A stretch of DNA of 64,000 bases, taken from Dehalococcoidia bacterium. GTDB taxonomy: Bacteria; Chloroflexota; Dehalococcoidia; Lucifugimonadales; CAUZJF01. Positions within the stretch are counted from its first letter, which is position 1. The number at the start of each line of letters is the position of its first letter. The notes under the pieces are model-generated. The model worked only from the letters and a program-made list of their open reading frames with translations. It did no database searches and had not been told where the DNA came from. A program made the translations under genes and the position numbers. Below are positions 13,009-39,353 of this stretch, one piece after another. Location: positions 402,554-466,553 of the forward strand of contig CBDEFX010000002.1 of the NCBI GenBank assembly GCA_965237635.1, given 5' to 3'.

Positions 13009-13737
13009 TCACAGGGGAAGCGTCCGCCCTGCCTCCCGCAGGTGTCGGCGACGCTGCTGCGCATCCGGCATCGCCTTGGCCACCAGGCCCCAGAAGTCCG
13101 TCGAGTGGTTCTGATGGGTCAGGTGCGCCAACTCGTGGACGACGACGTATTCGATGAGGGCCTGCTCCAGCATCATGGTGCGCCAGTTGAAGCGCAGCGT
13201 GCCGTCGGGCGCGCAGCTGCCCCAGCGTTGGCGCTGGTCGCGGACGAGTATCTGCGACTTCTCTCCGCGACCGAGCCGGGGCCACCAAAGGTCAACAGCG
13301 TTCGGCAGCCGCTCGGCAGCCCGGTCCCGATACCATCCGACGACTGCACGGCGAATCGGCTCGTAGCGTTCGAGGCCGCTCAGGGTCTTCGGTACTGTGA
13401 CTCGGAAGCGCCAGTGGTCGAAGCGTACCATAGGCGAACGTATGTCCGCGGTATCGACGATCATGCGGACGTTGCGCCCCGAGTACGGCAGGGTCTCGCC
13501 GCTGACGAAGCGCTTCGGCGCGGCTTCCAGCATCTCCCCAGACGCATGGCTGAGGATCCAGGGCGCCCGCTTGCGAACGATGGCCCGTAGCTCGCTGTCC
13601 GGCGTCGTCATGGGTGCAGCAACCTGCACACCGCCACCGTCCGTCGTGATCTGGACCGTCTTCTTACGCCGTTCGCTGCGACGCACCTCGTAGTCTATGG
13701 CCGTGTTGCCGAAGCGGATACGGCCCCGTTCGTTCAC
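13009..13737 (-). CDS. M48/YgjP-like (DUF45) metalloprotease associated with type I R-M
   Basis: QRWGSC, LRFNWR, YVVVHELAHL; overlaps the hsdR stop. Confidence 0.88.
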   Translation of the reverse strand: MNERGRIRFGNTAIDYEVRRSERRKKTVQITTDGGGVQVAAPMTTPDSELRAIVRKRAPWILSHASGEMLEAAPKRFVSGETLPYSGRNVRMIVDTADIRSPMVRFDHWRFRVTVPKTLSGLERYEPIRRAVVGWYRDRAAERLPNAVDLWWPRLGRGEKSQILVRDQRQRWGSCAPDGTLRFNWRTMMLEQALIEYVVVHELAHLTHQNHSTDFWGLVAKAMPDAQQRRRHLREAGRTLPL

Positions 13738-16700: not shown

Positions 16701-16910
16701 TCGCTCCGCCTGCTCCTCCGTCATCCATTCGTTAAGCCGCATCAGCGCGGCCCGCAGCCGTCCCTTCAGCAGGACCTCCCGCTCATCGCCGCGCTCCGCC
16801 GCCAGCGCCTCGCGGGGCACGTAGGTCCACCCCAGACGCTCCAGCAGCAGCCGCGCCGGGTCCTCGGCGTGGTTGAACTCGTTGAGTTTGGAGGCGGTAA
16901 CCATTGTCAT
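13734..16910 (-). CDS. hsdR: Type I restriction endonuclease subunit R
   Basis: PDLVLFVNGVPLVVMEAK nuclease motif, HTQGSGKS, VDEAHR, GFTGTP, VVDMLLTGFDAP, QAIARVNR. Confidence 0.95.
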   Translation of the reverse strand: MTMVTASKLNEFNHAEDPARLLLERLGWTYVPREALAAERGDEREVLLKGRLRAALMRLNEWMTEEQAERAVFELEHVDSTGMARNQSVHEYLTYGMPLTVDGPRGRDSRTVRFFDFDQAEGGLNEFVVTTQFRVRRGNERGGADDDERMVIPDLVLFVNGVPLVVMEAKSPSLLDVWRSQAVRQLRRYQEAGPEWHGSGAPELFHYNLLCVAHCGAASAYATLGAPENAYFEWKSVLPYTEDEVQQRFRVEPQGQAQLIVGLLSPATLLDILRDYVVYEPERGRLVKKLPRYQQYRAVRAALDRLLSGRKPEERGGVVWHTQGSGKSLTMLWLATKLRREPRLSNPTIVVATDRRQLDRQIAGTFERCGFPAPERMDRSRPERPERRARRRMQRPDQRDPLDLQGVLKEGGSRTVMTTIQKFAEALTAPEGELDVLNASENVIVMVDEAHRTQYGILGGRMSKALPNAVMVGFTGTPIEKDFKRNTIGRFGPLIDAYTIPQSVADGATVPIWYEARLPELAVEGPETLDRLYEAMFGDEPPEVQAQIRRRYANKETVAEAERRIEMISLDIAEHFKGKVRPNGFKAQIVAPSRAAALRYAERLNSFGLRAYPIITAAPNDGPEFKVARELDQEQVVNAFVDPEGEPEVLVVVDMLLTGFDAPVEQALYLDRALREHGLLQAIARVNRRFSHEQDGVPTDKTHGLVIDYHGVSRDLEDALSTFDWPDVQDTMREMDEDPAPVIEAAAVQTESHFKSRDLRDTWACVSVFAPDALTEGNFKADLFERFNADYRRFSLLMDRFLPDPRALDYTDRLARLTEIRAYVRAQFLREDADADWTEIGAKVKRLVDERISAQVRELMRPVSILDQDFEQKIAALPHDEARASIMEHAIRAQIHDRLADNPVFFEKLSAQLARIIEDLRNRLIDSAEACRRLALLRHHAQSEADIAAEHGLSPVSFAIYELLDGRSDEPATDSAIGEEQTPYRAHFDEGIKRVARSVESVVNHHNAVVDWQSNLEVLREMRRDIKRELRPTDDYTEEQLEELTNRIVELARRRSGQ

Positions 16911-17815
16911 TACGAGAAGATCGCGATCGGGATTACCTGGATTGCTGGCCCCTGAATCTCAGTGGATGAATCTCCGGAATAACCCGGCTCGTTAGCAAAT
17001 TGGCTCATTGCTTCTTGAATGGTCGGCAAAAAGGTCCTAAATTGTCCAAGTGGGGTCTTCCTCAGAAGGTCGATGTTCTCGTCGTTGGGTTCTGGGATGA
17101 CGCGGCTAGCCTTACCGAAAACGCGGAATGTTCCGTCGATGACGTCATTCATCGTAGGATCATTGAAGTATTGCTGCTCCGTGGTGATGATCACATTAAT
17201 GTCACCGATTCTGGAGACGAGGTCCCGGGATTCACCACTTGTTAATGCTTTCACCAATGAGTTGACCTGCTTAAGCACAGTAGAGTTCGCGCTCTTGCCT
17301 TGCTTGCGCTGACGGGGACCCTTCGGTGCTGTCGGTTCTTCGAAGGCGCTCATTAGTGGAACAAGTTCAGCGAACGCCGATAATTGAACCAGAAATTGAT
17401 TCCGCCGAAGAGTCGCTTCAAATTCCACAAAGTCGCTGGGGCGAACCCCGCCAAGGCCGGATGGGTCTAATAGATCGGTCACCAGGCCACGATTACGCAA
17501 ATCTCTTCGCAGGCGAGCGAACAATGATGCCGGTGTATGGATAATTTCTTCCGTAGTGCTCTCACTCTGCGCCTGCCCCGTTTGTCGAGACCCACGTCCA
17601 CCGAATTTCATTCCAAACAAAGTGAGGTTGGCTCCAACCTGTGCTTCCCCAGAAACTTCTGTCGATTTCTCTCCAGAGGAAGTAGTCTGCACGGTTGAGA
17701 AGCGTGAGAATCCGTCTTCCAGTGTTGCAAGGATATCGAACGTCACTTGTTGATTCAGGTATAATGCAATAGGCAGGTCAGTGACAACGAGTTGGGATTC
17801 CTCTTTATTGGCCAT
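16910..17815 (-). CDS. Hypothetical protein (DUF6414-like) inside the hsd operon
   Basis: 301 aa; IALYLNQQVTFDILATLEDG start and IPIAIF end resemble DUF6414 as I recall it. Visibly more AT-rich than its neighbours. Confidence 0.65.
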   Translation of the reverse strand: MANKEESQLVVTDLPIALYLNQQVTFDILATLEDGFSRFSTVQTTSSGEKSTEVSGEAQVGANLTLFGMKFGGRGSRQTGQAQSESTTEEIIHTPASLFARLRRDLRNRGLVTDLLDPSGLGGVRPSDFVEFEATLRRNQFLVQLSAFAELVPLMSAFEEPTAPKGPRQRKQGKSANSTVLKQVNSLVKALTSGESRDLVSRIGDINVIITTEQQYFNDPTMNDVIDGTFRVFGKASRVIPEPNDENIDLLRKTPLGQFRTFLPTIQEAMSQFANEPGYSGDSSTEIQGPAIQVIPIAIFS

Positions 17816-19088
17816 GAATTCCCTTCCCCACTTCTACCCGCACACGCCCCGACAGCAGCGCGGCTGCGGTGGATGCCTTCAGTGACCGCAGTCGATTCCA
17901 CTCAGTCCTGTTCTCTTCGATAGCCTTGTGAAGAGACTTTCCAACATCGGCAATCGTGTTGCGCTCCGACGACGACGGGAAAGCAACCCGCGCATGGCTC
18001 ACGTTAATCAGACTCAGACCAGGCCTGGTCTGACCGTAAGCCATCCCTCTGAACTGGTTCTGACCAGCCAAGCCTCTTAAGAACTCGCAGGCAAAGTCAC
18101 TTAGCCCTGGGTCGTTGAGCCTCACTAGCGCCACATGCTGACTCACGTAAGCTTGGCATAGCGTGTCTCCTGCCACCGTTACCTTACCGGGTTCGCCGGT
18201 GATTGAAACAAGAAGGTCGCCCCTGTGGATGCGAGTTCGTGCGGCTTCGGCATCTACGGGGGGCTGAACAAAGATTGCGTCAGACCTATCAATCGTGCCA
18301 CCCGAAATGTTCTGACTCCGAACAAAGAACGCACCGTTGGGCCTGAAGTACTGGGACCATGCCCTTGAACCACTCGTGATAGTCTGTGCCACATCCTCCA
18401 GCCGCACCACCTCCCACCCCGCTGGTATCGTCCCAATGCCCGGCACATCCTTCCATTGGGTGTGCCAACCGGGGACGCCGCGGGTGAGCAGTTGGTGCAG
18501 CAGGGCGTTGCGCAGACATTCGGTGGCCGTGATGACCGCCTCCACACCCTCGATGGTCTCGTCGATGGAGTCCAGCACGGCGGCGATGGCCTGCTGCTCC
18601 GGCAGGGGCGGGAGGAGAAGTGGGAAAGCAAGGTAGCCAGCGTAGTCTAGGTTGCGGATGCCCGTAGTTTGATGCTGTAATCGTGTAGTTACCCCTTGCA
18701 AGTAGCGGTGCCAGAGTGCCCGGGCTACGTAGAAGGGGCTACAACGTGAAGCGTCCACCCGGAGGTGTTGACAGAAATTATTGCAGTACACGGGGCCGAA
18801 CCCATCTATTATCGCAACACGCCCGACGGGCGTTCCAGGACCGCCGCCACTCCGTTCTAGAATGAGGTCCCCATCGCGCATCAGTCGGCGTTCTCGGTCA
18901 CGATCTGAAAGTCGTCGCCATGCGGCAGCTTCCGGATTAACTCGACCATCCCTCGTAAGATCAGTGGCTCTGAGCACTCGTACGCCAGGATCGTCAGGTG
19001 ATGGCTCGTCCCCCCAAGCACCAGGTTGATTAAGGACCAAGATGTCCCCTAAGCGCACCACCTGCCATCCATCCGGCACTTGCATCAA
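17805..19088 (-). CDS. hsdS: Type I restriction specificity subunit S
   Basis: VPDGWQVVRLGD, two TRDs, central LPPLPEQQAIAAVLDSID...IPAGWEVVRLEDV, C-terminal LKAS...LLSG. Confidence 0.93.
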   Translation of the reverse strand: MMQVPDGWQVVRLGDILVLNQPGAWGDEPSPDDPGVRVLRATDLTRDGRVNPEAAAWRRLSDRDRERRLMRDGDLILERSGGGPGTPVGRVAIIDGFGPVYCNNFCQHLRVDASRCSPFYVARALWHRYLQGVTTRLQHQTTGIRNLDYAGYLAFPLLLPPLPEQQAIAAVLDSIDETIEGVEAVITATECLRNALLHQLLTRGVPGWHTQWKDVPGIGTIPAGWEVVRLEDVAQTITSGSRAWSQYFRPNGAFFVRSQNISGGTIDRSDAIFVQPPVDAEAARTRIHRGDLLVSITGEPGKVTVAGDTLCQAYVSQHVALVRLNDPGLSDFACEFLRGLAGQNQFRGMAYGQTRPGLSLINVSHARVAFPSSSERNTIADVGKSLHKAIEENRTEWNRLRSLKASTAAALLSGRVRVEVGKGIHGQ

Positions 19089-19444
19089 CTGCTCCGCTGG
19101 TCTCCACTGTCGGTGCCCCGCAGCGCATCAAGTGTCACCCCTCGGCCTGCCTGTTTCGCTTCGAGCCACCGCTGGAGAGACTTCTGACTCTCACTGGATG
19201 GCCTGCCCGCAAGCAACCCCTCCACGCTGACGTCCTCGTCTAGGTCGGGCCAGTGGATGCCCTGGCCTCCGCCTATGAGCCGCCAGTTGGCCTTCTCTTC
19301 CTCCGTGGCATTCACCAGCCTGGGGTACCAGGCCAACGGGACCGAGATGGTCCGGCCATCGGAAAGCTCGGCGGTCAACGTGTCCTCGGTGACAGTCACG
19401 TCTTCCGCATCCGGGACCCTTACCTCAACCATCGAAATATTCAT
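19085..19444 (-). CDS. DUF2442 protein (putative TA partner)
   Basis: LSDGRTISVPLAWYPRL...GQGIHWPDLDEDVSVEGLL. Confidence 0.88.
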   Translation of the reverse strand: MNISMVEVRVPDAEDVTVTEDTLTAELSDGRTISVPLAWYPRLVNATEEEKANWRLIGGGQGIHWPDLDEDVSVEGLLAGRPSSESQKSLQRWLEAKQAGRGVTLDALRGTDSGDQRSS

Positions 19445-19661
19445 GCCACGCCTCCACGAACAACGTTTGGTTCTCCCCAATTATCCTCGCAATTCGGCCT
19501 ATCTCAGAGCGCCTCAGTCCGCCGCTCCTCTGAAGCCTCACCGGGTCCAGCCAGAACTTGGCGACCCGGTCGTCACGCTCAACATGCACATGTAGCGGCT
19601 CCTCCCGGTCACTTGCATAGAAGAAGAAGCGATACGGCCCCTCTCTCAGTATCGTCGGCAT
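19425..19661 (-). CDS. DUF4160 protein (putative TA partner)
   Basis: MPTILREGPYRFFFYASDREEPLHVHVER...AKFWL...AWHEYF. Confidence 0.88.
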   Translation of the reverse strand: MPTILREGPYRFFFYASDREEPLHVHVERDDRVAKFWLDPVRLQRSGGLRRSEIGRIARIIGENQTLFVEAWHEYFDG

Positions 19662-19676
19662 CGCTCACCTGCGACC

Positions 19677-21206
19677 CTATCGGGCATATCCCAGCTCCGC
19701 GAGCAGTTCGTCCATCTTTGCCACCGCCTCGTCGCGCCGCCGCTCAGCATCCCGCAGCTGCGCCAAGGCGTCCTCGATGCTCATCACTTCCACGGGCTCG
19801 GTAGTGTCCACGTACCGGCTGATGTTCAGATTGAAGTCGTTGGCCCGCATCTCCTCCAGGTCTGCCACGTGGGCGAAGCGTTCCACGTCCTCGAAGGCGG
19901 TATACGCCTCGACGATCCTGGCGATGTGTTCCTTGTCGATATAGTTCCGCGCTTTGCCTTGCCGGAAGCTGCCCTCCTGCGCCGCGTCTACGAACAGCAC
20001 CTTGCCACGCCGCTCGGCGGGTTTGGCTTTGTTCAGTACGCAGATAGCAACGGGGATGCTGGCCCCGGAGAAGAGGTTGGGCGCCAGTCCGATGACCGCC
20101 TCGAACAGGTCGGCCTCCACGATGCCCTGGCGTATCTTCCCCTCCGCCCCGCCCCGGAACAGGATGCCGTGGGGCATCACGATTCCCACCATGCCCTGAG
20201 AGTTGATCACGCCGAGCATGTGCAGTAGGAAGGCGAGGTCACCCTTCGTCTTGGGCGGGATGGCGCCGTAGCGGTCGAAGCGGTGGTGCGGGTCGTTTGG
20301 CGCGAATTCGTGTCCCCAGTTCTTCAAGCTGAAGGGCGGATTGGCGATCAGCCGGTCGTAGGAGAGGAGGCGTCCCGTCCCGTCCACTAGGCCCGGCTCC
20401 GCGATGACGTCGCCGGGTTCCAGACGAGCGGCCCGCAGGCCGTGAAGCAGCAGGTTTAGCTTGCCGATGGCCAGGGTTCCCAGGTTGCGCTCTTGGCCAT
20501 GCAGCGCCAGGTCACGGAGGTCTCCGCCGTGTTCTTGCACGTACTGAGCAGTGTAGATGAGCATCCCGCCGGAGCCAGCGGTGGGGTCGCAGATACGCAT
20601 CCCCTCGCGTGGTTGAAGCAGCTCGATAATGAGGCGCACCACGGGGCGAGGCGTGTAGAACTCGCCGCCCTTCTTCCCAGCGTCGTCGGCGAACCTGTTT
20701 ATCAGGTACTCGTAGGCGTCGCCCAGCACGTTGCCGCCGCCTGCCGCGTCTTCCCGCAAGTTCTCGTCGCGCAGGTCCAGGCCGTCGAAGTGGTTGAGCA
20801 GGCCGCGGATGATGCGTTCACGGTTGGCCGGGCTGCCCAGCTTGGACTCGTCGTTCCAGTTGGTACCCGCCAGCACGCCGTCCAGCCTGGGAGTGTTAGC
20901 GTCCTCGATGGCGTGGCTGACGACGTTCAGGGTTTCGCCCAAGTTCATCGAGGCGGCAGCAATGGCCTCCCAGCGGGCCGATGCTGGGACGAAGAACTCG
21001 TGCTCGTCCCGGTCGTTGAGCGCCACGTCGCGGGCAACGCCCAGCGCGACGGCGTTCTCCACCTCCTCATCGAACCGGTCGGACAGCCGCTTAAGGAAGA
21101 GAATGGAGAAGATGTAGTTCTTGTAGTCGGCGGCGTCGATCTGTCCGCGCAGGATGTCGGCGGCCTGCCACAACTTCGACTCAAGCTCCTGCCTGGTCAA
21201 CGTCAT
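19677..21206 (-). CDS. hsdM: Type I restriction methyltransferase subunit M
   Basis: LWQAADILRG, GKKGGEFYTP, DPTAGSGG, ANPPF, MPHGILFRG. Confidence 0.95.
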   Translation of the reverse strand: MTLTRQELESKLWQAADILRGQIDAADYKNYIFSILFLKRLSDRFDEEVENAVALGVARDVALNDRDEHEFFVPASARWEAIAAASMNLGETLNVVSHAIEDANTPRLDGVLAGTNWNDESKLGSPANRERIIRGLLNHFDGLDLRDENLREDAAGGGNVLGDAYEYLINRFADDAGKKGGEFYTPRPVVRLIIELLQPREGMRICDPTAGSGGMLIYTAQYVQEHGGDLRDLALHGQERNLGTLAIGKLNLLLHGLRAARLEPGDVIAEPGLVDGTGRLLSYDRLIANPPFSLKNWGHEFAPNDPHHRFDRYGAIPPKTKGDLAFLLHMLGVINSQGMVGIVMPHGILFRGGAEGKIRQGIVEADLFEAVIGLAPNLFSGASIPVAICVLNKAKPAERRGKVLFVDAAQEGSFRQGKARNYIDKEHIARIVEAYTAFEDVERFAHVADLEEMRANDFNLNISRYVDTTEPVEVMSIEDALAQLRDAERRRDEAVAKMDELLAELGYAR

Positions 21207-22450: not shown

Positions 22451-22546
22451 CGCGCTCTGCCTTCTTGTGATTCACCGGGGAAACTCGGTGAAAGTCGATG
22501 AATGTCTGCAACGTAAGCGCAAGCCGCCCGAAATGGGGAATCTTAA

Positions 22547-24265
22547 CCCGAATCCACCGAAGGAGGGCGTCGGGTTAGCGTCCTGAGGCGGCAAGAAGGC
22601 GCTCCTGTGCTTCTGGGATAATGGTTTTGTAGCAAAAAAACGACCCCGGAAAAGGAGCACCCAGTAGATGCTGCCACGCAACCACCCCGACCGGATCCAA
22701 ATCACCTTCGACGACCGCCGCTTGGTGGCCAATGCCGGGCTGCTCCTTCCGGCCACCCTGGCGCGGCACCTCGGCCTGCCCGAACTCGTCCGGCAGCGCC
22801 TCGACCTGGGCGATGCCCCGGGGCGGGCGAACACGAGCGACAAGATGATGACGCTGGTGGCGTCTGCGCTGGCTGGGGGCGACTGCATTGACGACGCCGA
22901 TGTGTTGCGCACCGGGGGGACGGCCTGCACCCTGGGCGGCACGGTCAAGGCGCCATCCACCCTGGGCACCTTCCTGCGCAGCTTCCGGTGGGGCCACGTC
23001 CGTCAACTCGACCGGGTGAGCCGCGAGTTGCTGGCCCGGGCTTGGCAGGCCGGGGCGGGACCCGGCGACGGGCCCCTGACCATTGACCTGGACTCCACCA
23101 TCTGCGAGACCTACGGACTGGCCAAGGAGGGCGCCCGCCACCACGGCTATACCGGCAAGCGGGGCTACCACCCGCTGCTGGCCATCGCCGCCGGCACCGG
23201 AGACGTGCTGATGTCCCGGCTGCGCGAGGGCCGGGCCAACACCGCCCGCGGCGCCGCCCACTTCCTGCGGGAGACGGTGGGACGGGTGCGCTACGCCGGG
23301 GCCAACGGACGACTCACGCTACGGGCCGACAGCGGGTTCTACACTCATGGCGTGGTATCCGTCTGCCGCAAGATGGATGTCCGCTTCTCCATCACCATCC
23401 GCCAGCACAAAAGCCTGCACAATCTCATCGAGGCGATACCCGAAGATGCCTGGACGCCGATTCCTTACTGGATGGACGGTGCCGCCGATGTGGCCGAGAC
23501 CACCTGCACCCCCTTCCAGGCCGAGGCGGACGCCGCGCCGGTACGGCTCATCGTCCGGCGGGTGAAGCCGACGCCCGGTTCCCAACTGGCCCTCTTCGCC
23601 AAATACAGCTATCATGGCTTCATCACCGACCGAGACGGGGAGTTGCTCGAACTGGAGGCTGACCATCGCCGCCACGCCGAGATCGAGAATACCATACGCG
23701 ACCTCAAGTACGGCGTCGGGCTGAACCATCTCCCCTCGGGCCGCTTCGCCGCCAACGGCGCCTGGCTGGCCGTCCAGACGATGGCCCACAACCTGGCCCG
23801 CTGGACGGCGCGGATCGGTCTGGGAGAGCGGATAGCCACCACCAAAACCCTCCGGCGGCGGTTCTTCTCCCTGGCCGGACGGCTCACCCGCTCGGCACGC
23901 CGGTTGACCCTGCATCTTCCGGATCGCTGGCCTTGGGCTGAGAAGTTCAGCCGCGCCTTGGCCCGGCTGCGAGCCATTCCACTCCCGGCCTGACGGCACC
24001 GTCGGCGACCGACCCACCCACCGGACAACCGAAGATCCCCGCAGACTCGTGCCAGCCCGGTCCGAGAGAGTTCCCTGCTGCGTATTCTCTCGCCATCCCG
24101 CGCATCGCAGCTCCCGCAGACGGCCATAGGGGCCCCTGTGCGGCGATGAAGACCGTCCGCCGACCTCCCTACCCCAAATGGAACCCAGGCTATTTCCCCT
24201 GTAGCTCCCTCACCCCCCTTCCGCTTTCCTCACGCCGTCCATCGGTGTCCTTCGGTGGATTCGGG
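22547..24265 (+). mobile_element. IS1380-family element, copy 2
   Basis: Same IRs as copy 1; TSD CTTAA at 22542-22546 and 24266-24270. Confidence 0.93.
22668..23993 (+). CDS. IS1380-family transposase
   Basis: 441 aa, same motifs as 11176-12501. Confidence 0.93.
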   Translation: MLPRNHPDRIQITFDDRRLVANAGLLLPATLARHLGLPELVRQRLDLGDAPGRANTSDKMMTLVASALAGGDCIDDADVLRTGGTACTLGGTVKAPSTLGTFLRSFRWGHVRQLDRVSRELLARAWQAGAGPGDGPLTIDLDSTICETYGLAKEGARHHGYTGKRGYHPLLAIAAGTGDVLMSRLREGRANTARGAAHFLRETVGRVRYAGANGRLTLRADSGFYTHGVVSVCRKMDVRFSITIRQHKSLHNLIEAIPEDAWTPIPYWMDGAADVAETTCTPFQAEADAAPVRLIVRRVKPTPGSQLALFAKYSYHGFITDRDGELLELEADHRRHAEIENTIRDLKYGVGLNHLPSGRFAANGAWLAVQTMAHNLARWTARIGLGERIATTKTLRRRFFSLAGRLTRSARRLTLHLPDRWPWAEKFSRALARLRAIPLPA

Positions 24266-24941
24266 CTTAACGAAAGGCCCCAGGATGTCCCAGTATACGC
24301 CCATGGCGGGAGAACAAGGACCGACCGAACCGATGCCAGGTGGCCTGAATCCGGAGGATCGCCATCTCTGAGGTGCTCTGTCCGCTCCGAGGCGACAAAT
24401 CGACAGCCGGGGTTTTACTCGGGCATGCTCCTTGTGTCTAGTCGATGGAAGTCTGCGGGGCATCTCTCTTCCAGGCGCTGGACCGCTACCAGCGATATCA
24501 GGGCAGAGGATTGTGTTGCCCGGGGGCCGTGTAGATGGGGCTCGTGACATCCTTCAAGGAATTCTTGAAAAAACGCGGTGACCGCGCGGGCAGGCCTCAT
24601 ATAAGTGTAAGGAATATATGGGAAACGAATGTTCTAGACGATTCCTTCGACTCGCCGGCTTCCGAGTACGCGACTTCGGAGGGTGGGTGGTCCGAGGAAA
24701 TGCGGAAGAATCGCCAGACCGAGCTGCGGTACCGTCGATGGGGCCGTGGATCTGGTAGCCAAAAGGGGCGAAGTCAGGGTGAGCACTCTCGTAAACGGCG
24801 GGGCCGAGGTACACGAGTGCTCGACGTCTGCAACGGAGAAATAGCTGGCCAAACTCACTTCGGAGTTCGGACCTCTAAACACGACGGTAAACAGCGAGGG
24901 ACGCAACGTGGTCGTTCTCAGCGAGACAAACGAGTACGGAG

Positions 24942-25676
24942 ATGAAGAGGACAGTCTTGATTCCTGAGTCGATGGGCGTCGCGAGTGAGGGAGCCAGCAT
25001 GGCCTCGTTCCACGAGGCAGGGCCCGGTGCGAGTCCGAGGGCGACGCTCCAAGCGATTCGGGTGGGTCCCATAGCTCAGTCGATCGCCAAGCCGCTGATC
25101 GTAAATGGGCACTACCTGCACAGCTATCCGGGTGGCACGAAGCTTGCCTTCGGTGCGTTTCTCGGGAGTGCCCTCCTGGGTGTGCTGACGCTTGGCGTAG
25201 GTCCGAAGCTAGGCTATCAACTCGTCGCAGGAGCCAAGCCGGAAGACTGCGTGACACTTACTCGTCTCTGGCTCTCCGACCGGTTGCCGCGGAACAGCGA
25301 GTCGCGGGTGCTGGGGATCGTGCTTCGTGCGTTGAAGCGGCACACGTCTCTTAAGTTTGTCCTTGCCTACGCCGACCCATCCGTAGGGCACGTGGGAACC
25401 ATCTATCAGGCCAGCGGCTGGTCTTATTCGGGAATTTCGGCAGCCATGCCTATGTACGACCTGGGCGACGGCGTTCCTCGCCACAGTCGAAGCCTCGCCT
25501 ACATGTTCGGGACCCATTCTCAGCGACACTTCGCGACCAACGGAGTCTCGCTGAGACCCCTGCCGCAGCCGGGAAAGCATCGCTACGTCTATTTCCTAGA
25601 TCGTGAGTGCACTCGTCGATTGAATGCGCGAGTTCTGCCATATCCGAAGAAGGAGGACGTTATTGAGGGTCGTTGA
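24942..25676 (+). CDS. mom: Mom-family (GNAT-like) DNA adenine modification protein
   Basis: HYLHS, LTRLWLSDRLPRNSESR, YADPSVGHVGTIYQASGW, KHRYVYFL, recognised as Mom-like motifs; sits next to a ParB-like gene. Confidence 0.8.
   Translation: MKRTVLIPESMGVASEGASMASFHEAGPGASPRATLQAIRVGPIAQSIAKPLIVNGHYLHSYPGGTKLAFGAFLGSALLGVLTLGVGPKLGYQLVAGAKPEDCVTLTRLWLSDRLPRNSESRVLGIVLRALKRHTSLKFVLAYADPSVGHVGTIYQASGWSYSGISAAMPMYDLGDGVPRHSRSLAYMFGTHSQRHFATNGVSLRPLPQPGKHRYVYFLDRECTRRLNARVLPYPKKEDVIEGR
24976..25051 (+). ncRNA. tRNA-Gly(UCC)-like element, non-canonical, overlapping the mom 5' end
   Basis: 76 nt. Acceptor GCGTCGC/GCGACGC + U73 + CCA; D stem GTG/CAT; anticodon stem GCCTC/GAGGC with loop GT-TCC-AC; T stem CCCGG/CCG(A)GG with loop TGCGAGT. 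Confidence 0.8.
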
Positions 25677-26295
25677 TCTACCAGTTGGGAGCCTCAGGGA
25701 GGCGGCCTGGAACCCGAACGCGATGGAACCACCCATGGTCGCAAAACTCCGCATGAGCATCGCCCGGTTCGGCTTAGTCGGGAACCTGGTGGTGCGGCGT
25801 GTGTACGTTGACCGATACGAGGTCATCGGCGGCAACCAACGTCTCCAGGTGTTGAAAGAGATGGGCGTGAAGCAGGTCCCATGCGTGGTCCTTGATCTGG
25901 ACGATGCCGAAGCTCGCCTGCTAGCTCAGGCCCTGAACCACGTAGAGGGCGTCGACAACGCGGGGCTCAAGGCCGAGCTGGTGAAAGAGGTGCTCAAGTC
26001 CATCCCCCGGTCCGAAGTGTTGGCAGTCCTGCCCGAGACCGAGGATGGACTCAGTGTCCTGGAGTCTCTCGGTGAAGCGGACCTCGCGGAGCACCTGCGG
26101 GCATGGGAGCAGGCCCAGGCCGCACGGCTTCGCCATTTCACGGCGCAGCTGTCGGCGAGCCAGCTCGAGGTAGTGGAGGAGGCGATGGAGCGGGCCGCGT
26201 CGGGAACCGGCGCCGATCCCTCGAACCCAAACCAGCGTGGCAACGCCCTCTACCACCTGTGCCAGGAATACCTGGAGAGGAGTCCAACGCCATGA
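25663..26295 (+). CDS. ParB/Srx N-terminal domain protein
   Basis: WNPNAM...LRMSIARFGLVGNLVVR...YEVIGGNQRL. TTG start behind GGAGG, overlapping the mom end. Confidence 0.85.
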   Translation: MRVVDLPVGSLREAAWNPNAMEPPMVAKLRMSIARFGLVGNLVVRRVYVDRYEVIGGNQRLQVLKEMGVKQVPCVVLDLDDAEARLLAQALNHVEGVDNAGLKAELVKEVLKSIPRSEVLAVLPETEDGLSVLESLGEADLAEHLRAWEQAQAARLRHFTAQLSASQLEVVEEAMERAASGTGADPSNPNQRGNALYHLCQEYLERSPTP

Positions 26296-26530: not shown

Positions 26531-27499
26531 GTGGAAGCATATAAACAACTAAAACTCAGACAGAGGGAAGCACGCATCGCGGCGACCTTGCCCGCCACCA
26601 TTGGAGAAGATGCCATCACTGCCACCGCGCCCATAAGGGAGATAACGACGGGGCTGTCTACCAGGCTGGGCCTGGTGCAGACGGCACTGTCGATGGTGCT
26701 CGAGGGGCGGACCAGGGCCACGGTGACAGAGGTGACCGATCGGGCCGCTGACGACTTCGAGGTATTCATCTTGCCGTCAGTGGGAGGTCAGATCTTCAGT
26801 GATTTGGGAGTCCGGCGCGTCAGTGTCCATGGCCAGCGCCGGCTGATCCTGGAAGCTGAGTCTCTGCAGGCTGTCCACGATGACCTGGTAGGGCAGATGG
26901 AGAGGCTGAAACCTCAGGTTGAGGCAGCGGCGGAAAAGTTCGAGAGGTCGACCGAGACGGTGCAGGTGTTGGAAGGGCGGATGAGCAGGATCTACCAGCG
27001 TGCTAGCCACGAGAAGGAATTGAGGGCGTTCATCATCAAGTACGAGCAAGAGGGCAGGGGGGCCAACGAATGGCAGTCGCGGTACGACGGGCTCAAGGCC
27101 CGCATCCAGCGAGGAGAGGAGTTGAAGGCGGCCTGCCAGGAGCTGGAAGCAAAGATAGCGGAGCTGGGCTCCCCTGAGGAGATGCAGAAGGTATTGGAGG
27201 AGAAGCTTCGGGACCATGAGAGCCGTATGGAGGAGCTAGCCAAACGCGATGAAGCCCTGGAGAAATCGGGACGCGACGTGGACCGCAAGGAAGCGGCTCT
27301 TGAGAAGAAGCTAGAGGAGCTGGATCAGAGGGAGCGGGCTCTTTTGGGCAGGTTCTTCAAGTACAACGTTCGCGAAGGCGTGGTCGAGACAGGCGAGGTC
27401 AAGAAGGAACTGAAGGAAAGGAAGAAGGAACTGGCCCGTCTGGACCGTGAGCTGGGGAAGAAGCGTGGCATGCTGGCCCGGCTGCGAGGGAAGGACTGA
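26531..27499 (+). CDS. Hypothetical protein with a long C-terminal coiled coil
   Basis: 322 aa; E/K/L/R-rich heptads over the last ~200 aa; stop overlaps the resolvase start. Confidence 0.7.
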   Translation: MEAYKQLKLRQREARIAATLPATIGEDAITATAPIREITTGLSTRLGLVQTALSMVLEGRTRATVTEVTDRAADDFEVFILPSVGGQIFSDLGVRRVSVHGQRRLILEAESLQAVHDDLVGQMERLKPQVEAAAEKFERSTETVQVLEGRMSRIYQRASHEKELRAFIIKYEQEGRGANEWQSRYDGLKARIQRGEELKAACQELEAKIAELGSPEEMQKVLEEKLRDHESRMEELAKRDEALEKSGRDVDRKEAALEKKLEELDQRERALLGRFFKYNVREGVVETGEVKKELKERKKELARLDRELGKKRGMLARLRGKD

Positions 27500-28110
27500 T
27501 GCGCGTCGGTCTCTACGCCAGAGTCTCCACCTTGGACAAGGACCAGGACCCCGAGACGCAGCTCGTGGCACTGCGAGAGTTCGTTCGGGCCCAGGGTTGG
27601 GAGATTTTCCGCGAGTACGTGGACCACGCCCCTGCGCGAGACCTGACCCATCGGACGGCCTGGCGCGAGCTACTGGACGACGCGGCCAGGAAGCGATTCA
27701 AGACGGTGGTGGTCTTCAGGCTGGACCGGGCCTTTCGGTCGGTCAAGGACATGCACGACACGCTGGCTACGTGGGAGCTGTTGGGGATCGCTTTCAAGAG
27801 CGTGCGAGAGCAGTTCGACACAGGGACGGCTGTGGGAAGACTGCTGCTGAACCTTCTGGCGGCGGTGGCAGAGTTCGAGTTGGAGCTGATCCGCGAGCGT
27901 GTGAAGGCGGGGATGGACAGGGCTCGCCGACAGGGCAAGCGGATAGGGCGTCCCAGGGTAACGGACCGGCGAGGCTTCGATCGTCGTTTTGGAGCTATTT
28001 TGGAGCGCCTAAGCTCGGGAGAACTATCGAGACGTAAGGCGGCGTTTGAACTGGGTATCGGCTATGCAACGCTCAAACGCCTGATCGACGCACAAGAGTC
28101 GGCTGGCTAG
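27499..28110 (+). CDS. Small serine recombinase (resolvase/invertase) with C-terminal HTH
   Basis: GLYARVST, QDPETQ, VVVFRLDRAFRS, FELELIRERVKAGMDRAR..GKRIGRP. Confidence 0.93.
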   Translation: MRVGLYARVSTLDKDQDPETQLVALREFVRAQGWEIFREYVDHAPARDLTHRTAWRELLDDAARKRFKTVVVFRLDRAFRSVKDMHDTLATWELLGIAFKSVREQFDTGTAVGRLLLNLLAAVAEFELELIRERVKAGMDRARRQGKRIGRPRVTDRRGFDRRFGAILERLSSGELSRRKAAFELGIGYATLKRLIDAQESAG

Positions 28111-28319: not shown

Positions 28320-29936
28320 ATGAGCGACGCGAACTCCAAGAGAGCTGTGGCCTACCTCAGGGTATCGTCTATCTCACAGGTGGACGGGCACTCTCTGAAC
28401 GCCCAGGAGCGGCTCTTCAATCAGTTGTGTGAGAGCCGAGGGTGGGCGGCCGTCAGGGTCTATCGGGAAGAGGGCCAGTCGGCCCACTCGGAGTCGGTGA
28501 AGAAGCGCCCTATCTTCCGCCAACTGATGGAGGACGCCAGGAGGGATCAATTCGATATCGTCGTAGTCCATACCCTTGACCGATGGTCTCGCAACCTCAG
28601 GGTCACCCTGGAGTCGCTGGCCAACCTGGGCATGCACAACGTCGCTCTCGTCTCCATCACCGAGAACATCGACTACTCGACCCCTGAGGGGATGTTGACG
28701 ACTCAACTTCTGGGGTCCTTCGCCCAGTTCTTCTCCAACATGCTTGGCACTCACGTAAGCAAGGGTCTGGATGAGAGGGCCAATGAGGGCAGACACACCG
28801 GCGGCATCCCGTTCGGATACGAATCCTGCTGGATGAGCCAGGACGGAGAGCGCAGGCGCAGATGCCCAAAAGAGCATTCCGGGGGCGTTCATCTTATTGC
28901 GTCCGAGGTTGCCGCGGTCCGGGAGATGTTCAAACGGTACTCAACGGGATCGACCACACTAAGCCAGCTCGCCGCGTGGCTGAACGCGAGCGGCTTACGG
29001 ACTCGCAACACCAAGCAGCTGGCAGGCGCTGATGGCAAGCTCTCGCCCGGTCCGAAGCTATTTACCACTGCCTCAGTGAGGGGCATCCTCCATAACGCTT
29101 TCTACTCGGGTCTTGTCAGGCACAGGAAGCAACTCCGACCGGGAGCCCACGAGCCAGTCGTCGGCCAGGAGCTCTTCGATCTGGTCCAGGACAAGATGCG
29201 GCACAACAGCGGCAGATCAACGACCCTGAGCCCTCACCCTCACCCTGAGCGTGACTATCTTCTGAAAGGGATCATCCGTTGCGCCTACTGCAAGATGCCG
29301 ATGTGGGCACAGACCTATAAAAGCGGAAGAAGGTACTACCGTGAGCACAGGGAGTCTCGCAGTAACACCCAATGCCCAGCTCACGGCGGCTCGATACCGT
29401 GCCGCCTGGCGGATGAGCAGGTCGGAAGGATCGTCGAGGCCATCGAGCTGGGACCTGCATGGCAAGAGCAGCTCCTCTCGATAATCAGCGCCAGGGACGA
29501 GGTCGAAGTAGTCCAAGCCAAGCGGCGAAAGGTCCAGGAGAGGCTTCGGAGACTCGCCAAGACCTATGTCGATGGAGTTTATGATGACCAGGAGTATAAG
29601 CGGCAGAAGCGGAACCTGGAGATGGAGCTCGAGTCCCTCGTTGTGCCAAAGGCTGCCGCAGCCGCAGAGGCGGGGAAGCTGATAGAGAGGCTGCCTGAGC
29701 TATGGGCTGGAGCCAACATGGAAGAGCGTCGGAAGCTGTTGGTGGCCATGCTGGACGCCGTTTACGTTGACACGAAAGACGCCCGTTCGGTCGTCGCCAT
29801 CAAGCCCAAAGCTCCGTTCAGGCCAGTCTTCCATCTGGCAACCACCCGTGCCGGCTCCGGCGTATCTCTTACGCCTGGTTCTGACCGGAAACAACAGGAA
29901 CGTACCGAGCGCGTGTTCGAGGCCGCCTTCTCATAG
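28320..29936 (+). CDS. Large serine recombinase (integrase) with Zn-ribbon domain, copy 1
   Basis: AYLRVSS, VVHTLDRWSRN, GGIPFGY, ILHNAFYSG, HEPVV, LLKGIIRCAYC, coiled coil. Confidence 0.93.
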   Translation: MSDANSKRAVAYLRVSSISQVDGHSLNAQERLFNQLCESRGWAAVRVYREEGQSAHSESVKKRPIFRQLMEDARRDQFDIVVVHTLDRWSRNLRVTLESLANLGMHNVALVSITENIDYSTPEGMLTTQLLGSFAQFFSNMLGTHVSKGLDERANEGRHTGGIPFGYESCWMSQDGERRRRCPKEHSGGVHLIASEVAAVREMFKRYSTGSTTLSQLAAWLNASGLRTRNTKQLAGADGKLSPGPKLFTTASVRGILHNAFYSGLVRHRKQLRPGAHEPVVGQELFDLVQDKMRHNSGRSTTLSPHPHPERDYLLKGIIRCAYCKMPMWAQTYKSGRRYYREHRESRSNTQCPAHGGSIPCRLADEQVGRIVEAIELGPAWQEQLLSIISARDEVEVVQAKRRKVQERLRRLAKTYVDGVYDDQEYKRQKRNLEMELESLVVPKAAAAAEAGKLIERLPELWAGANMEERRKLLVAMLDAVYVDTKDARSVVAIKPKAPFRPVFHLATTRAGSGVSLTPGSDRKQQERTERVFEAAFS

Positions 29937-30153: not shown

Positions 30154-30183
30154 TGGTGGAGACGGGGGAGGGCCTAACTCCAC
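30154..30183 (-). other. attL-like site with a tmRNA-3'-end-like arm
   Basis: Minus strand GTGGAGTT-AGGCCCTCCCCCGTCTCCACCA; the same arm recurs at 39323, 42975 and 56143. Confidence 0.7.
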
Positions 30184-30894: not shown

Positions 30895-31026
30895 GTCGCG
30901 CCTCTGGATGACGAAACCTCGAGTATCCTCGAAGCGGCCTCGGCGTTCATGAATGAAGTAGGCTCGGCTCACTTCGGCATGGAGGTACGATTGGAGGTTG
31001 AGCCGTTAGCGGTCTCGTTCGCTTAC

Positions 31027-32744
31027 CCCGAATCCACCGAAGGACACCGATGGACGGCGTGAGGAAAGCGGAAGGGGGGTGAGGGAGCTACAGGGGAAAT
31101 AGCCTGGGTTCCATTTGGGGTAGGGAGGTCGGCGGACGGTCTTCATCGCCGCACAGGGGCCCCTATGGCCGTCTGCGGGAGCTGCGATGCGCGGGAGGCG
31201 AGAGAATACGCAGCAGGGAACTCTCTCGGACCGGGCTGGCACGAGTCTGCGGGGATCTTCGGTTGTCCGGTGGGTGGGTCGGTCGCCGACAGTGCCGTCA
31301 GGCCGGGAGTGGAATGGCTCGCAGCCGGGCCAAGGCACGGCTGAACTTCTCAGCCCAAGGCCAGCGATCCGGAAGATGCAGGGTCAACCGGCGTGCCGAG
31401 CGGGTGAGCCGTCCGGCCAGGGAGAAGAACCGCCGCCGGAGGGTCTTGGTGGTGGCTATCCGCTCTCCCAGACCGATCCGCGCCGTCCAGCGGGCCAGGT
31501 TGTGGGCCATCGTCTGGACGGCCAGCCAGGCGCCGTTGGCGGCGAAGCGGCCCGAGGGGAGATGGTTCAGCCCGACGCCGTACTTGAGGTCGCGTATGGC
31601 ATTCTCGATCTCGGCGTGGCGGCGATGGTCAGCCTCCAGTTCGAGCAACTCCCCGTCCCGGTCGGTGATGAAGCCATGATAGCTGTATTTGGCGAAGAGG
31701 GCCAGTTGGGAACCGGGCGTCGGCTTTACCCGCCGGACGATGAGCCGTACCGGCGCGGCGTCCGCCTCGGCCTGGAAGGGGGTGCAGGTGGTCTCGGCCA
31801 CATCGGCGGCACCGTCCATCCAGTAAGGAATCGGCGTCCAGGCATCTTCGGGTATCGCCTCGATGAGATTGTGCAGGCTTTTGTGCTGGCGGATGGTGAT
31901 GGAGAAGCGGACATCCATCTTGCGGCAGACGGATACCACGCCATGAGTGTAGAACCCGCTGTCGGCCCGTAGCGTGAGTCGTCCGTCGGCCCCGGCGTAG
32001 CGCACCCGTCCCACCGTCTCCCGCAGGAAGTGGGCGGCGCCGCGGGCGGTGTTGGCCCGGCCCTCGCGCAGCCGGGACATCAGCACGTCTCCGGTGCCGG
32101 CGGCGATGGCCGGCAGCGGGTGGTAGCCCCGCTTGCCGGTATAGCCGTGGTGGCGGGCGCCCTCCTTGGCCAGTCCGTAGGTCTCGCAGATGGTGGAGTC
32201 GAGGTCAATGGTCAGGGGCCCGTCGCCGGGTCCCGCCCCGGCCTGCCAAGCCCGGGCCAGCAACTCGCGGCTCACCCGGTCGAGTTGACGGACGTGGCCC
32301 CACCGGAAGCTGCGCAGGAAGGTGCCCAGGGTGGATGGCGCCTTGACCGTGCCGCCCAGGGTGCAGGCCGTCCCCCCGGTGCGCAACACATCGGCGTCGT
32401 CAATGCAGTCGCCCCCAGCCAGCGCAGACGCCACCAGCGTCATCATCTTGTCGCTCGTGTTCGCCCGCCCCGGGGCATCGCCCAGGTCGAGGCGCTGCCG
32501 GACGAGTTCGGGCAGGCCAAGGTGCCGCGCCAGGGTGGCCGGAAGGAGCAGCCCGGCATTGGCCACCAAGCGGCGGTCGTCGAAGGTGATTTGGATCCGG
32601 TCGGGGTGGTTGCGTGGCAGCATCTACTGGTTGCTCCTTTTCCGGGGCCGTTTTTTTGCTACAAAACCATTATCCCAGAAGCACAGGAGCGCCTTCTTGC
32701 CGCCTCAGGACGCTAACCCGACGCCCTCCTTCGGTGGATTCGGG
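31027..32744 (-). mobile_element. IS1380-family element, copy 3
   Basis: Same IRs; TSD CTTAC at 31022-31026 and 32745-32749; near-identical to copy 2. Confidence 0.93.
31298..32623 (-). CDS. IS1380-family transposase
   Basis: 441 aa, near-identical to 22668-23993. Confidence 0.93.
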   Translation of the reverse strand: MLPRNHPDRIQITFDDRRLVANAGLLLPATLARHLGLPELVRQRLDLGDAPGRANTSDKMMTLVASALAGGDCIDDADVLRTGGTACTLGGTVKAPSTLGTFLRSFRWGHVRQLDRVSRELLARAWQAGAGPGDGPLTIDLDSTICETYGLAKEGARHHGYTGKRGYHPLPAIAAGTGDVLMSRLREGRANTARGAAHFLRETVGRVRYAGADGRLTLRADSGFYTHGVVSVCRKMDVRFSITIRQHKSLHNLIEAIPEDAWTPIPYWMDGAADVAETTCTPFQAEADAAPVRLIVRRVKPTPGSQLALFAKYSYHGFITDRDGELLELEADHRRHAEIENAIRDLKYGVGLNHLPSGRFAANGAWLAVQTMAHNLARWTARIGLGERIATTKTLRRRFFSLAGRLTRSARRLTLHLPDRWPWAEKFSRALARLRAIPLPA

Positions 32745-33423
32745 CTTACGTGGGGGAGTTTCAGACGCCTGACCGCGCGCAAGGCACTATAAACGGGTTC
32801 CTCGTTCAAGAATCGGAGGTCATTGCGATTGGCGAGGAAATGTATACGCAGGTACGCGGCGGTTGGATAGAAATAGCTGTCCGTCTTCCCTTCTTCCTGG
32901 ATCCGGTCAAGACAATCAATGCTGCCTTATCCGGCGGGGGCAACCTTAGACTCGTTGGAGACGGTATTGTGGATGGCACCCCCATGGATCATATGAAAGC
33001 TTCCTACGAACCAGGCGTCCTTAGCCCGAACAGCGGCGAGGTTGCCTTGGAAGTATGGATAAGCAAGCAAGACTCTCAATTGAAGCAGATCGCCGTCGAG
33101 GAAACGGCAGACTTGGGCCCGGAGGGGCACCCGATTGTCGGCAAGCTGGCCACAGGCGCGGTCCGAGCGCACGCGACGATGAAGCTGTCTGACTCCGCCG
33201 AGCTCGTGTCGATCGAATCGCCTGTGCCCCCTGCGAAACCCGGAAATATGAGGCAGAGTCACGGAGGCCTCTTTACGGCCACCATGCTTGGGGACGGGAG
33301 GGTGCTCGTTGCCGGAGGAGAAAACGAGAGCGTGGGACCGATGGCAATACAGTCAGCAGAGATCTACAACCCCTCATCAGGCGTGTGGTCCTCGGCCGGT
33401 AACATGTAAGGTGGACCCCATTA

Positions 33424-36814: not shown

Positions 36815-38220
<1,406 letters not shown>

Positions 38221-39308: not shown

Positions 39309-39353
39309 GTCAGACGGGGAGTTAGGCCCTCCCTCTTCTCCACCACGAACACG
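39309..39353 (+). other. attP-like junction, degenerate right arm
   Basis: GTCAGACGGGGAGTT-AGGCCCTCCCTCTTCTCCACCACGAACACG. Confidence 0.65.

Follow-up and report, generated by a model that had tools for sequence, protein, structure and literature searches.

In 2011, McMurdie et al. reported that the mom gene of genomic islands in Dehalococcoides holds, within its first 150 bp, a 76-bp locus resembling a glycine transfer RNA (tRNA) (McMurdie et al. 2011, BMC Genomics 12:287; PMC3146451). A 'DCC' anticodon in a loop of 5 nucleotides (nt) was predicted; the locus is usually annotated as 'pseudo-tRNA', no function was proposed for it, and the attachment (att) repeat of the islands is the 3' end of ssrA (PMC3146451). 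It was later found that Mom, a GNAT-fold aminoacyl-tRNA-dependent transferase, moves glycine from Gly-tRNAGly to adenine N6 in the case of Mu (Silva et al., bioRxiv 2023; Nat Commun 2026; PMC13219725). All three tRNAGly isoacceptors work with Mu Mom and Gly-tRNAAla is rejected (PMC13219725); hence, the enzyme reads the body of the tRNA. Residues R111 and S124 of Mu Mom are essential, and the formation of N6-carbamoylmethyl-deoxyadenosine (ncm6dA) from Gly-tRNAGly was shown for Mu Mom only, with in vivo activity for two mined homologues; neither Dehalococcoides nor an embedded tRNA is mentioned in the text of that study (PMC13219725). The work of 2011 predates the Gly-tRNAGly finding, and our literature search found no paper tying Mom's use of Gly-tRNA to an embedded tRNA-like locus. 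Here, we describe such a locus in a 64,000-nt stretch of DNA from a Dehalococcoidia bacterium (contig CBDEFX010000002.1, forward-strand positions 402,554 to 466,553; the whole stretch is called the window below), where a 76-nt cloverleaf at 24976-25051 (+) spans codons 12-37 of a same-strand open reading frame (ORF) of the Mom family. An earlier sequence-only reading of the window had mentioned both the use of Gly-tRNA by Mu Mom and the tRNA-like locus of the Dehalococcoides island modules, and the two papers bear it out on both counts (PMC13219725, PMC3146451).

The element in the window is like the Dehalococcoides locus in that it lies 35-110 nt into the mom ORF on the same strand, presents NCC in a 5-nt loop and belongs to the same module. 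It is unlike that locus in its higher-GC lineage (P0003, a Mom with 77% identity, is encoded on a contig of 5.45 Mb), in belonging to a sub-clade with G8/G14 and the T-loop UGCGAGU, and further in having a 30-nt insertion and two flanking copies of an insertion sequence (IS). Copies 3' of mom or free-standing, as found in phages below, were not reported in 2011. The Mom of the window shares with that of Mu the family PF25680 and the catalytic Arg and Ser, and ParB-domain neighbours occur in viral loci as well; Mu mom differs in that no embedded tRNA-like RNA is known for it and the host's three tRNAGly isoacceptors are used.

Fem enzymes share the GNAT fold, and the non-proteinogenic tRNAGly species of Staphylococcus differ in the base identities of the T stem and D-loop. 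These species are the pentaglycine donors of FemXAB (PMC4574755, PMC12256121, PMC3239215) and would be like the Mom-linked RNA as variants that are charged by glycyl-tRNA synthetase (GlyRS) for a non-ribosomal transferase. Their features are expected to lower use by EF-Tu and the ribosome, as those of the Mom-linked RNA presumably do. However, they are free-standing genes with a normal cloverleaf, whereas the Mom-linked RNA has a bulged G:C-rich T stem and a 5-nt loop, lies in or beside the gene of the enzyme and is mobile; the resemblance is one of function only, and no homology is implied. Phage tRNAs are likewise tRNA-shaped, carried by phages or mobile elements and charged by host synthetases (charging is proposed for the Mom-linked RNA), but they are canonical decoders found by tRNA finders, with no tie to a single enzyme and no coding overlap. 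Among tRNA-shaped modules in longer RNAs are the MALAT1-associated small cytoplasmic RNA (mascRNA), cut from MALAT1 by RNase P and RNase Z, and the 3' tRNA-like structures (TLS) of plant viruses such as turnip yellow mosaic virus (TYMV, valine) and brome mosaic virus (BMV, tyrosine). These resemble the Mom-linked RNA in being releasable by tRNA-processing enzymes or chargeable at CCA. They are eukaryotic or viral and non-coding, and the TLS has a pseudoknotted acceptor at the 3' end of the genome, whereas the Mom-linked RNA is internal to an mRNA, has a regular, covarying 7-bp acceptor stem, is translated and is proposed as a substrate of a DNA-modifying enzyme.

A tRNAGly-like RNA family that accompanies mom

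Comparison with related loci indicates that the segment is a member of a conserved family of tRNAGly-like RNAs, which travels with mom in integrating islands of Chloroflexota and in many phage contigs. The family is spread over at least 70 distinct island loci (of Chloroflexota type where an organism is named, plus one Actinomycetota metagenome-assembled genome, MAG) and at least 120 phage contigs. A single-protein search of genome contigs gave only four related loci, and an alignment-based scan of metagenome contigs was needed to gather the 88 that were compared. Mom homologues with 55-79% identity (from Chloroflexota or Dehalococcoidia where the organism is named) all have a conserved N-terminus, e.g. 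SAASVGASTAS..AGPGASPRAAL, whose variants GSNP, GSSP and GSTP result when T arms of the GGUUCGAAUCC type are translated in frame. At the DNA level, the related loci align without gaps through a Shine-Dalgarno (SD)-like motif, an ATG (mostly 4 nt before G1), the 76-nt cloverleaf, U-CCA and the Mom domain. When a covariance model (R1) was made from 40 homologous elements, leaving out the window and its closest relatives, it matched the window exactly at the 76 nt of the element, at full length and on the same strand, with 73.5 bits (E ~2e-14), and no other R1 match was found in the 64 kb at E < 1. Exactly one copy was found in 74/89 sources, always on the mom strand and at the 5' end of mom.

The fold of the element is kept by compensatory changes. 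Among 46 distinct island copies, 95.8% of the cells are paired and 12/22 pairs are compensatory; the corresponding values are 96.3% and 14/21 in a set of 65 distinct island copies, and 97.9% and 18/21 in 68 distinct viral copies, and in each set this was reached by 0/500 shuffles. The sequence-only reading had proposed covariation among mom homologues as a check, and compensatory changes in 12-18 of 21-22 pairs are what the check returned. Sliding the 3' partners by 1-3 columns in the 46 island copies left only 35-50% paired, and de novo prediction with RNAalifold gave this cloverleaf too, bulged T stem and 5-nt anticodon loop included. Pair 7:66 alternates between C:G, G:C, A:U and U:A, and with every switch a different amino acid is encoded on either side (..SAA/SAV/SAD/SAG.. 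with ..SA/ST/SS/SP-AL). In the T stem, whose bulged A is kept in 45/46 island copies, covariation is seen in three of the five pairs.

Third codon positions within the element are as conserved as first and second ones. Their entropy is 0.66 bits, against 1.65 bits in the adjoining Mom domain, and 8/25 of them are invariant, against 0/69; at the first third position past A76, the entropy rises to 1.91 bits. One of the invariant sites is C35, a third codon position, though its codon encodes I, V, F, N, T or S. These comparisons speak for a genuine tRNAGly-like RNA whose structure is under selection, with the nucleotides and not the peptide as the target. Conservation of the N-terminus at the protein level was considered and rejected on account of the synonymous-site constraint, the amino-acid-altering compensatory changes and the predicted disorder. 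Covariation of positions 8 and 14 (U8/A14 in 27 copies, G8/G14 in 11, A8/A14 in 5) was not used as evidence of a tertiary 8:14 pair, because both are third codon positions and may track genomic G+C.

The letters of the window element are GCGUCGC GA GUGA GGGAGCCA GCAU G GCCUC GUUCCAC GAGGC AGGG CCCGG UGCGAGU CCG-A-GG GCGACGC U CCA, and every base-level feature that had been named in the sequence-only reading (acceptor stem, U73, CCA, UCC, U33/A37, G8, T-loop and bulged A) is present on direct reading. The anticodon loop can be closed by G32:C38 to give the 5-nt UUCCA, and the elbow has G8, G14 and G55 instead of U8/A14 and U55. With four loci of closely similar context (L085-L088) and L007, the window forms a sub-clade that has in common G8/G14, the D-loop GGGAGCCA and the T-loop UGCGAGU. 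Within the sub-clade, L007 has C:G at 4:69 and L086 has U·G, and the other members (the window, L085 and L087/L088) have U:A. The D arm of the window carries three changes more than those of its closest relatives, two of which weaken D-stem pairs. The C25-to-U change, which weakens the D stem, also makes an in-frame ATG at 24999 where relatives have ACG; this ATG is preceded at 5 nt by the D-loop GAGGGAG (region 24987-25001) and could be a new internal start within the RNA.

Taken alone, the window element is not distinguishable from chance. ARAGORN called 0 tRNAs in the 64-kb window, and the Rfam tRNA model (RF00005) gave no match in the window at E <= 10 or at the gathering score. Folding of the element by itself gave a minimum free energy (MFE) no better than that of shuffled sequences (z-score -0.16), and the energy of the cloverleaf is -27.3 kcal/mol compared with an MFE of -32.1. 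The verdict of chance that ARAGORN, Rfam, the z-score and the non-MFE cloverleaf would give was overruled because of the comparative data. Most copies of the family are under the detection thresholds of ARAGORN and Rfam: ARAGORN calls a tRNA at the site of the element in 19/84 related loci, mostly tRNA-Gly (UCC, CCC, ACC) and in some cases 'Trp CCA', i.e. the conserved loop read one base along, and the Rfam gathering score is attained in L004 and L008.

Several loci depart from the common state. The cloverleaf has decayed, with the N-terminal extension kept and no R1 match, in L044, L045, L049, L052, L053, L061 and L080-L082, and only the 3' half is left in L034, L051, L054 and L063; these decayed or half elements imply that the RNA can be lost while Mom persists. 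The Actinomycetota MAG (L004, 2720-2796) carries a more canonical tRNA (Rfam 38.9 bits; ARAGORN 'Val UAC') with GCG, U73, CCA and an 'ACCA' loop, situated between parB and the Mom domain, within the Mom ORF but in another frame. Its occurrence there extends the association of Mom with a tRNA beyond Chloroflexota.

The element is also translated, as a predicted disordered tail of Mom. The Mom domain of the window begins at residue 39, two codons past CCA, and residues 12-37 are the translated tRNA-like RNA; in the AlphaFold2 model, residues 1-31 have a predicted local distance difference test (pLDDT) score < 50 and folded structure begins near residue 32. The Mom frame is open across the entire element in 70/70 distinct island loci. 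It is the only frame open through the element, because the other two carry stops in the conserved D arm (UAG at 8-10, UAA at 13-15). A D loop longer or shorter by 1 nt is balanced by a 1-nt difference in the anticodon loop, which preserves the frame. In 59/70 distinct loci, G1 is preceded at 4-10 nt by an in-frame ATG (at exactly 4 nt in 45), and an SD-like motif is found upstream of that ATG in 55/68 loci. A Mom start downstream of the element, which would leave the RNA untranslated, was rejected, since possible start codons (ATG, GTG or TTG) are missing from the 45 nt past CCA in roughly half of the loci and the frame is open in 70/70. The ORF of the window reaches further upstream than the usual start, to an ATG that overlaps the stop of the preceding ORF (ATGA). 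A 30-nt in-frame insertion found only in the window (24942-24975, between the mom start and G1) encodes residues 1-10 and leaves the ATG at the usual position without an SD-like motif; the ATGA start is common to the relatives L085-L088.

Glycine identity and departures from decoding tRNAs

It was reported that the determinants of bacterial GlyRS are G1:C72, C2:G71, C35, C36 and U73 (PMC10464925). This identity set, together with G3:C70, is present in the window and in the family: G1:C72, C2:G71, G3:C70, U73, C35, C36, C75 and A76 are found in 46/46 island copies, T54, A58 and G19 are likewise invariant or nearly so, and over ~130 distinct copies the GlyRS determinants and CCA are invariant or nearly so. 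The anticodon is always NCC in the island copies (UCC 34, CCC 6, ACC 5, GCC 1), and CC stands at 35-36 in 51/51 viral loops of 7 nt, a loop that the search pattern left unconstrained. For the GlyRS of L. plantarum, it was observed that the whole L-shape is required and that purine-4/pyrimidine-69 is preferred (PMC10464925).

Other positions depart from what a decoding tRNA would have. Position 33 of the island copies is A26/G12/U6/C2 and not the universal U. Bases 32 and 38 can pair in 38/46 island and 65/67 viral copies, and they covary, which gives a 5-nt loop N-N-C-C-A. The extra A of the T stem lies between pairs 51:63 and 50:64 in 45/46 island copies. The affinity of EF-Tu is set by the T-stem pairs 49:65, 50:64 and 51:63 (PMC3239215), and a bulged A inside these specificity pairs should disfavour use by EF-Tu. 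The elbow is largely kept in the family (U8/A14 27/46, G19 46/46, T54 46/46, U55 41/46, C56 45/46). Detection at standard thresholds, an open 7-nt loop with U33, a regular 5-bp T stem and, in the window, the elbow nucleotides are the features of canonical elongator tRNAs that were found wanting. As far as can be judged from the letters, these departures fit a non-ribosomal role. Some viral copies have a D arm that is reduced or missing, with a length of ~69-71 nt (L171 4451-4519, L172 9976-10044, L199 9065-9133, L201 4018-4086 and L234 2883-2953); they retain the acceptor stem, the NNCCA loop and the bulged T arm.

Linkage to Mom and possible roles

The linkage of the RNA to mom was followed in viral contigs with a pattern made from the RNA only (GGTKCRANYCCNANNNNNGCGCTCCA, covering the bulged T arm and the 3' strand of the acceptor), which was run on IMG/VR; at least 120 stretches matched and 80 loci were returned. 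Invariance in the T arm and the 3' acceptor strand is by construction in this viral set, which is not so in the island set. All 80 returned loci have a full-length R1 match at the pattern site, and 73/80 have a match to the Mom hidden Markov model (HMM) on the same strand; in 5 of the 7 others, the sequence upstream of the element is < 200 nt long. Arrangements were classed with a trimmed Mom HMM, as the untrimmed one contained the tRNA-encoded peptide and matched wherever the RNA lay. The element lies 5' of the Mom domain and within the ORF, as in the window, in 20 viral loci; 3' of the Mom domain in the same open frame, as a C-terminal tail, in 45; and downstream, outside the ORF or partly overlapped by it and up to 1276 nt off, in 6 (L170, L190, L209 twice, L218 and L248), with 2 loci ambiguous. 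Varied positions with a constant linkage to mom imply that the partner of the RNA is the enzyme and not the start codon, and the arrangements favour a trans-acting partner of the Mom enzyme.

The element is absent from the Mom 5' end in 80 viral Mom loci fetched by protein similarity (~30% identity). These loci had first suggested a feature confined to Chloroflexota, an idea that was overturned by a match in one of them (L097) and then by the copies found in the RNA-pattern scan. L097 has a 55-bit R1 match 1.3 kb downstream of mom, behind a glycosyltransferase-like gene, and this copy has the same bulged-A T stem, UUCCA loop and U73-CCA.

Among the 45 3'-embedded viral copies (among L169-L248), the spacing from the end of the Mom domain to G1 ranges from -16 to +62 nt, and G1 is at codon position 2 in both copies that were read (L173 and L176). 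The tRNA-encoded peptide at most 3'-embedded copies matches the N-terminal profile of the islands (HMM positions ~4-29). In one viral contig, L209, the unit of mom and tRNA-like RNA is duplicated in tandem (353-1101 and 1562-2554); in both units, the Mom ORF runs into the RNA in another frame and ends within the variable loop.

By a modest balance of probability, we take the element to be a co-transcribed, non-decoding glycyl donor for Mom that can be charged by GlyRS. The RNA would be transcribed as part of the mom mRNA, and the tRNA-shaped module would be released by RNase P and 3' trimming, or left as a stable remnant of mRNA decay. Host GlyRS would charge its CCA end, which is proposed because the identity set G1:C72, C2:G71, G3:C70, U73, C35 and C36 is kept. 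The RNA would be kept out of decoding and so form a private pool of Gly-tRNA; this is proposed because the 32:38 pair closes the loop to 5 nt, U33 is unconserved and an extra A lies in the EF-Tu part of the T stem. Mom would draw on the private pool and place glycine onto adenine N6, where it would rearrange to carbamoylmethyl-adenine, and the modification would protect the DNA of the mobile element from restriction. The proposal of the sequence-only reading that the island encodes its own tRNA for Mom holds as regards a real, selected RNA, the GlyRS set, the non-decoding features and the linkage to Mom (73/80); its further parts, namely processing, charging, avoidance of EF-Tu and the ribosome, and use by the Mom of the window, we infer. 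Whether the RNA in general serves mobile elements and phages as a private glycyl-carrier tRNA that takes no part in decoding, encoded in or against mom and usually also translated as a disordered tail, strikes us as an evenly balanced question.

A number of points weigh against a donor role. Mu Mom works with all host tRNAGly isoacceptors, and a private tRNA is not required (PMC13219725). Within 1.5 kb on each side, 79/80 of the protein-fetched viral Mom loci have no element. The copy in the window is among the more divergent ones (G8/G14, G55, a weak D stem), has no ARAGORN or Rfam call, and has a cloverleaf ~5 kcal/mol above the MFE. At 4:69, the window has U:A and 43/46 family copies have C:G, contrary to the purine-4/pyrimidine-69 preference, though this is known for the L. 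plantarum enzyme and may not hold in Chloroflexota; the 5-nt anticodon loop may also present C35 and C36 poorly to GlyRS. The element lies within the mom ORF in 65/73 viral and 70/70 island cases, and the frame is kept over many junction spacings, which the donor model does not explain. Finally, excision of the RNA would destroy that copy of the mRNA.

The retained reading frame, found over many junction types, is among the points for the main competing explanation, in which the element is a cis-acting tRNA mimic that controls mom expression and not a donor, with cleavage by RNase P or RNase Z as an off switch or with feedback through the binding of Mom or GlyRS. Translation of Mu mom is under tight post-transcriptional control by Com, and the element is always co-transcribed with mom, usually within the ORF. 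The island start codon is 4 nt from G1, and so folding and the initiation of translation must compete; if the mRNA were cut at G1, a mom with the element at its 5' end would lose the SD motif and AUG, and one with the element at its 3' end would lose its stop codon. However, the position varies, one copy lying 1.3 kb away behind another gene, and a switch at the start codon cannot be the common function for that reason. As the main role, the built-in switch at the start of mom that the sequence-only reading had envisaged finds no support, given 45 viral copies at the 3' end of mom and 6 outside the ORF against 20 at the 5' end. Moreover, C35, C36, U73 and an encoded CCA are all invariant although RNase P can do without them, and a CCA that is internal and uncharged makes a poor stand-in for Gly-tRNA as seen by Mom. 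On balance, control in cis is considered rather unlikely. An ordinary decoding tRNA-Gly in the manner of phage tRNAs, which would help to translate glycine codons or replace a host tRNA cut by defence nucleases and lie near mom by accident, would explain why ARAGORN makes calls in 19/84 loci, why L004 and L008 attain the Rfam gathering score, and why T54, C56, A58 and G19, and for the larger part U8/A14 too, are retained in the majority of copies. It is nonetheless very improbable, as U33 is absent as a universal base, 32:38 is a covarying pair that leaves a 5-nt loop, the T stem has an extra nucleotide in 45/46 copies, some viral copies have no D arm, most copies are under detection thresholds and a near-exclusive linkage to mom (73/80) would not be expected.

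We give scarcely any credence to a relic, i.e. a pseudo-tRNA or an att site from integration into tRNA-Gly that is conserved only as coding sequence. Automated pipelines do use the label 'pseudo-tRNA' (PMC3146451), the module integrates and has two serine recombinases, and the fold is lost in some lineages that keep the N-terminal extension or the 3' half; but compensatory changes keep all four helices over Mom proteins that are only ~30-60% identical, synonymous sites are constrained, the island att repeat is the 3' end of ssrA (PMC3146451) and the same RNA is found in phage contigs in other arrangements. Barely credible, too, is that the peptide is the conserved unit, an N- or C-terminal tail of Mom (SAASVxxSTAS..AGxGSxPxAAL) with a function as protein whose likeness to a tRNA reflects its origin. 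The same frame, with G1 at codon position 2, is used at either terminus, the ORF is open in 70/70 island and 65/73 viral cases, and Mu Mom without its 20 N-terminal residues is less active though the region is unstructured (PMC13219725). Yet amino acids vary freely where pairs are kept (7:66 and the T stem), third positions are as conserved as first and second, residues 1-31 have pLDDT < 50, the mom frame is the only stop-free one, and the RNA fold persists in copies that lie outside the ORF or are read in a different frame (L190, L209, L170, L004).

If the donor reading is true, the element would be the first dedicated tRNA co-substrate for DNA hypermodification, with one sequence serving as both mRNA and tRNA. 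Mu Mom is the first GNAT shown to modify DNA with a charged tRNA, and its competition with EF-Tu and the ribosome for Gly-tRNAGly is the question addressed; that the mobile element brings its own glycine carrier would be a directly testable answer. It would account for the 15-year-old 'pseudo-tRNA' annotation in the vinyl-chloride-respiration islands of Dehalococcoides, provide a compact natural example of dual coding for RNA and protein, and give sequence rules (bulged T stem, 5-nt NNCCA loop) to recognise non-ribosomal tRNAs that standard finders miss. The embedded tRNA-like locus itself is not new (McMurdie 2011, PMC3146451). What seems to be unpublished is the functional link, the broad spread among phages, the placement 3' of mom or free-standing, the constraint on synonymous sites and the conserved bulge in the T stem.

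The island module in the window

The Mom of the window matches that of Mu (PDB 8BV8) with E = 1.2e-20; R108 and S121 align with Mu R111 and S124, in the motif LTRLW...PRNSESR, and the enzyme looks active. The features of the locus are collected below.

Table. Parts of the tRNAGly-like element and features of its surroundings (positions in the window)
Feature	Position	Strand	Remarks
Acceptor stem	24976-24982 with 25041-25047	+	7 bp, perfect; G1:C72, C2:G71, G3:C70
D arm	24985-25000	+	D-loop GGGAGCCA; G8
Anticodon arm	25002-25018	+	UCC at 25009-25011; U33 = 25008; A37 = 25012
T arm	25023-25040	+	T-loop UGCGAGU at 25028-25034; bulged A at 25038 between pairs 51:63 and 50:64
U73	25048	+	
Encoded CCA	25049-25051	+	
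Upstream ORF, 136 aa	24535..24945	+	no Pfam family; stop overlaps mom start (ATGA)
mom homologue, 244 aa	24942..25676	+	Pfam PF25680, E = 3e-54, 184 bits; Mom/GNAT domain at residues 39-236
ATG, 4 nt before G1	24972..24974	+	usual start-codon position of homologues
ParB N-terminal-domain protein	25624..26295	+	Pfam PF02195, E = 3e-11; directly after mom, overlapping
322-aa protein, E/K/R/L-rich	26531..27499	+	no Pfam family; at the site of the RecF-like protein of McMurdie 2011 (PMC3146451)
Small serine recombinase (DsiA-like)	27499..28110	+	Pfam Resolvase, E = 9.5e-37
Large serine recombinase (DsiB-like integrase)	28320..29936	+	Pfam Resolvase + Recombinase + Zn_ribbon_recom
ssrA 3'-end exact 17-mer CTCCCCCGTCTCCACCA	30154..30170	-	blastn-short with the tmRNA 3' pieces of L074 and L010
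Further exact 17-mer CTCCCCCGTCTCCACCA	56148-56164	+	
ssrA 3'-end-like repeat, 33 nt	42964-42996	+	91%
ssrA 3'-end-like repeat, 33 nt	39313-39345	+	85%
IS copy upstream of the module	22544-24274	+	DDE_Tnp_1_4
IS copy downstream of the module	31018-32748	-	DDE_Tnp_1_4
Third IS copy	10918-12626	-	84% identical
Type I restriction-modification system	13734-21206	-	HsdR (1058 aa), DUF6414, HsdS, HsdM

The order of mom, parB and the small and large serine recombinases is the same in L085-L088, and the ParB neighbour is found in these and in the viral L097. The upstream ORF is weakly conserved in the closest relatives, with 39% identity over 69 aa to its counterpart in L086. The 17-mer from the 3' end of ssrA, the gene of transfer-messenger RNA (tmRNA), lies 218 nt past the large recombinase in the same orientation as in L074 and L010, as expected for the att repeat of an island, and no complete tmRNA gene was called in the 64-kb window. 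By gene content and order, the set found in the window corresponds to the integration module of ssrA-specific genomic islands. The further repeats resembling the ssrA 3' end suggest several past integrations directed to ssrA, as in the tandem islands of Dehalococcoides.

The module of mom, parB and recombinases is bracketed by the two inverted, 99%-identical IS copies (1732 bp), which resembles a composite transposon; the same IS family flanks both sides of the module in L085. Mu Mom acts against restriction, and a complete type I restriction-modification system lies upstream of the module in the window. Further downstream, a group II catalytic intron match (Rfam RF00029, 62.6 bits, E = 6e-10) was found at 37231-37332 (-).

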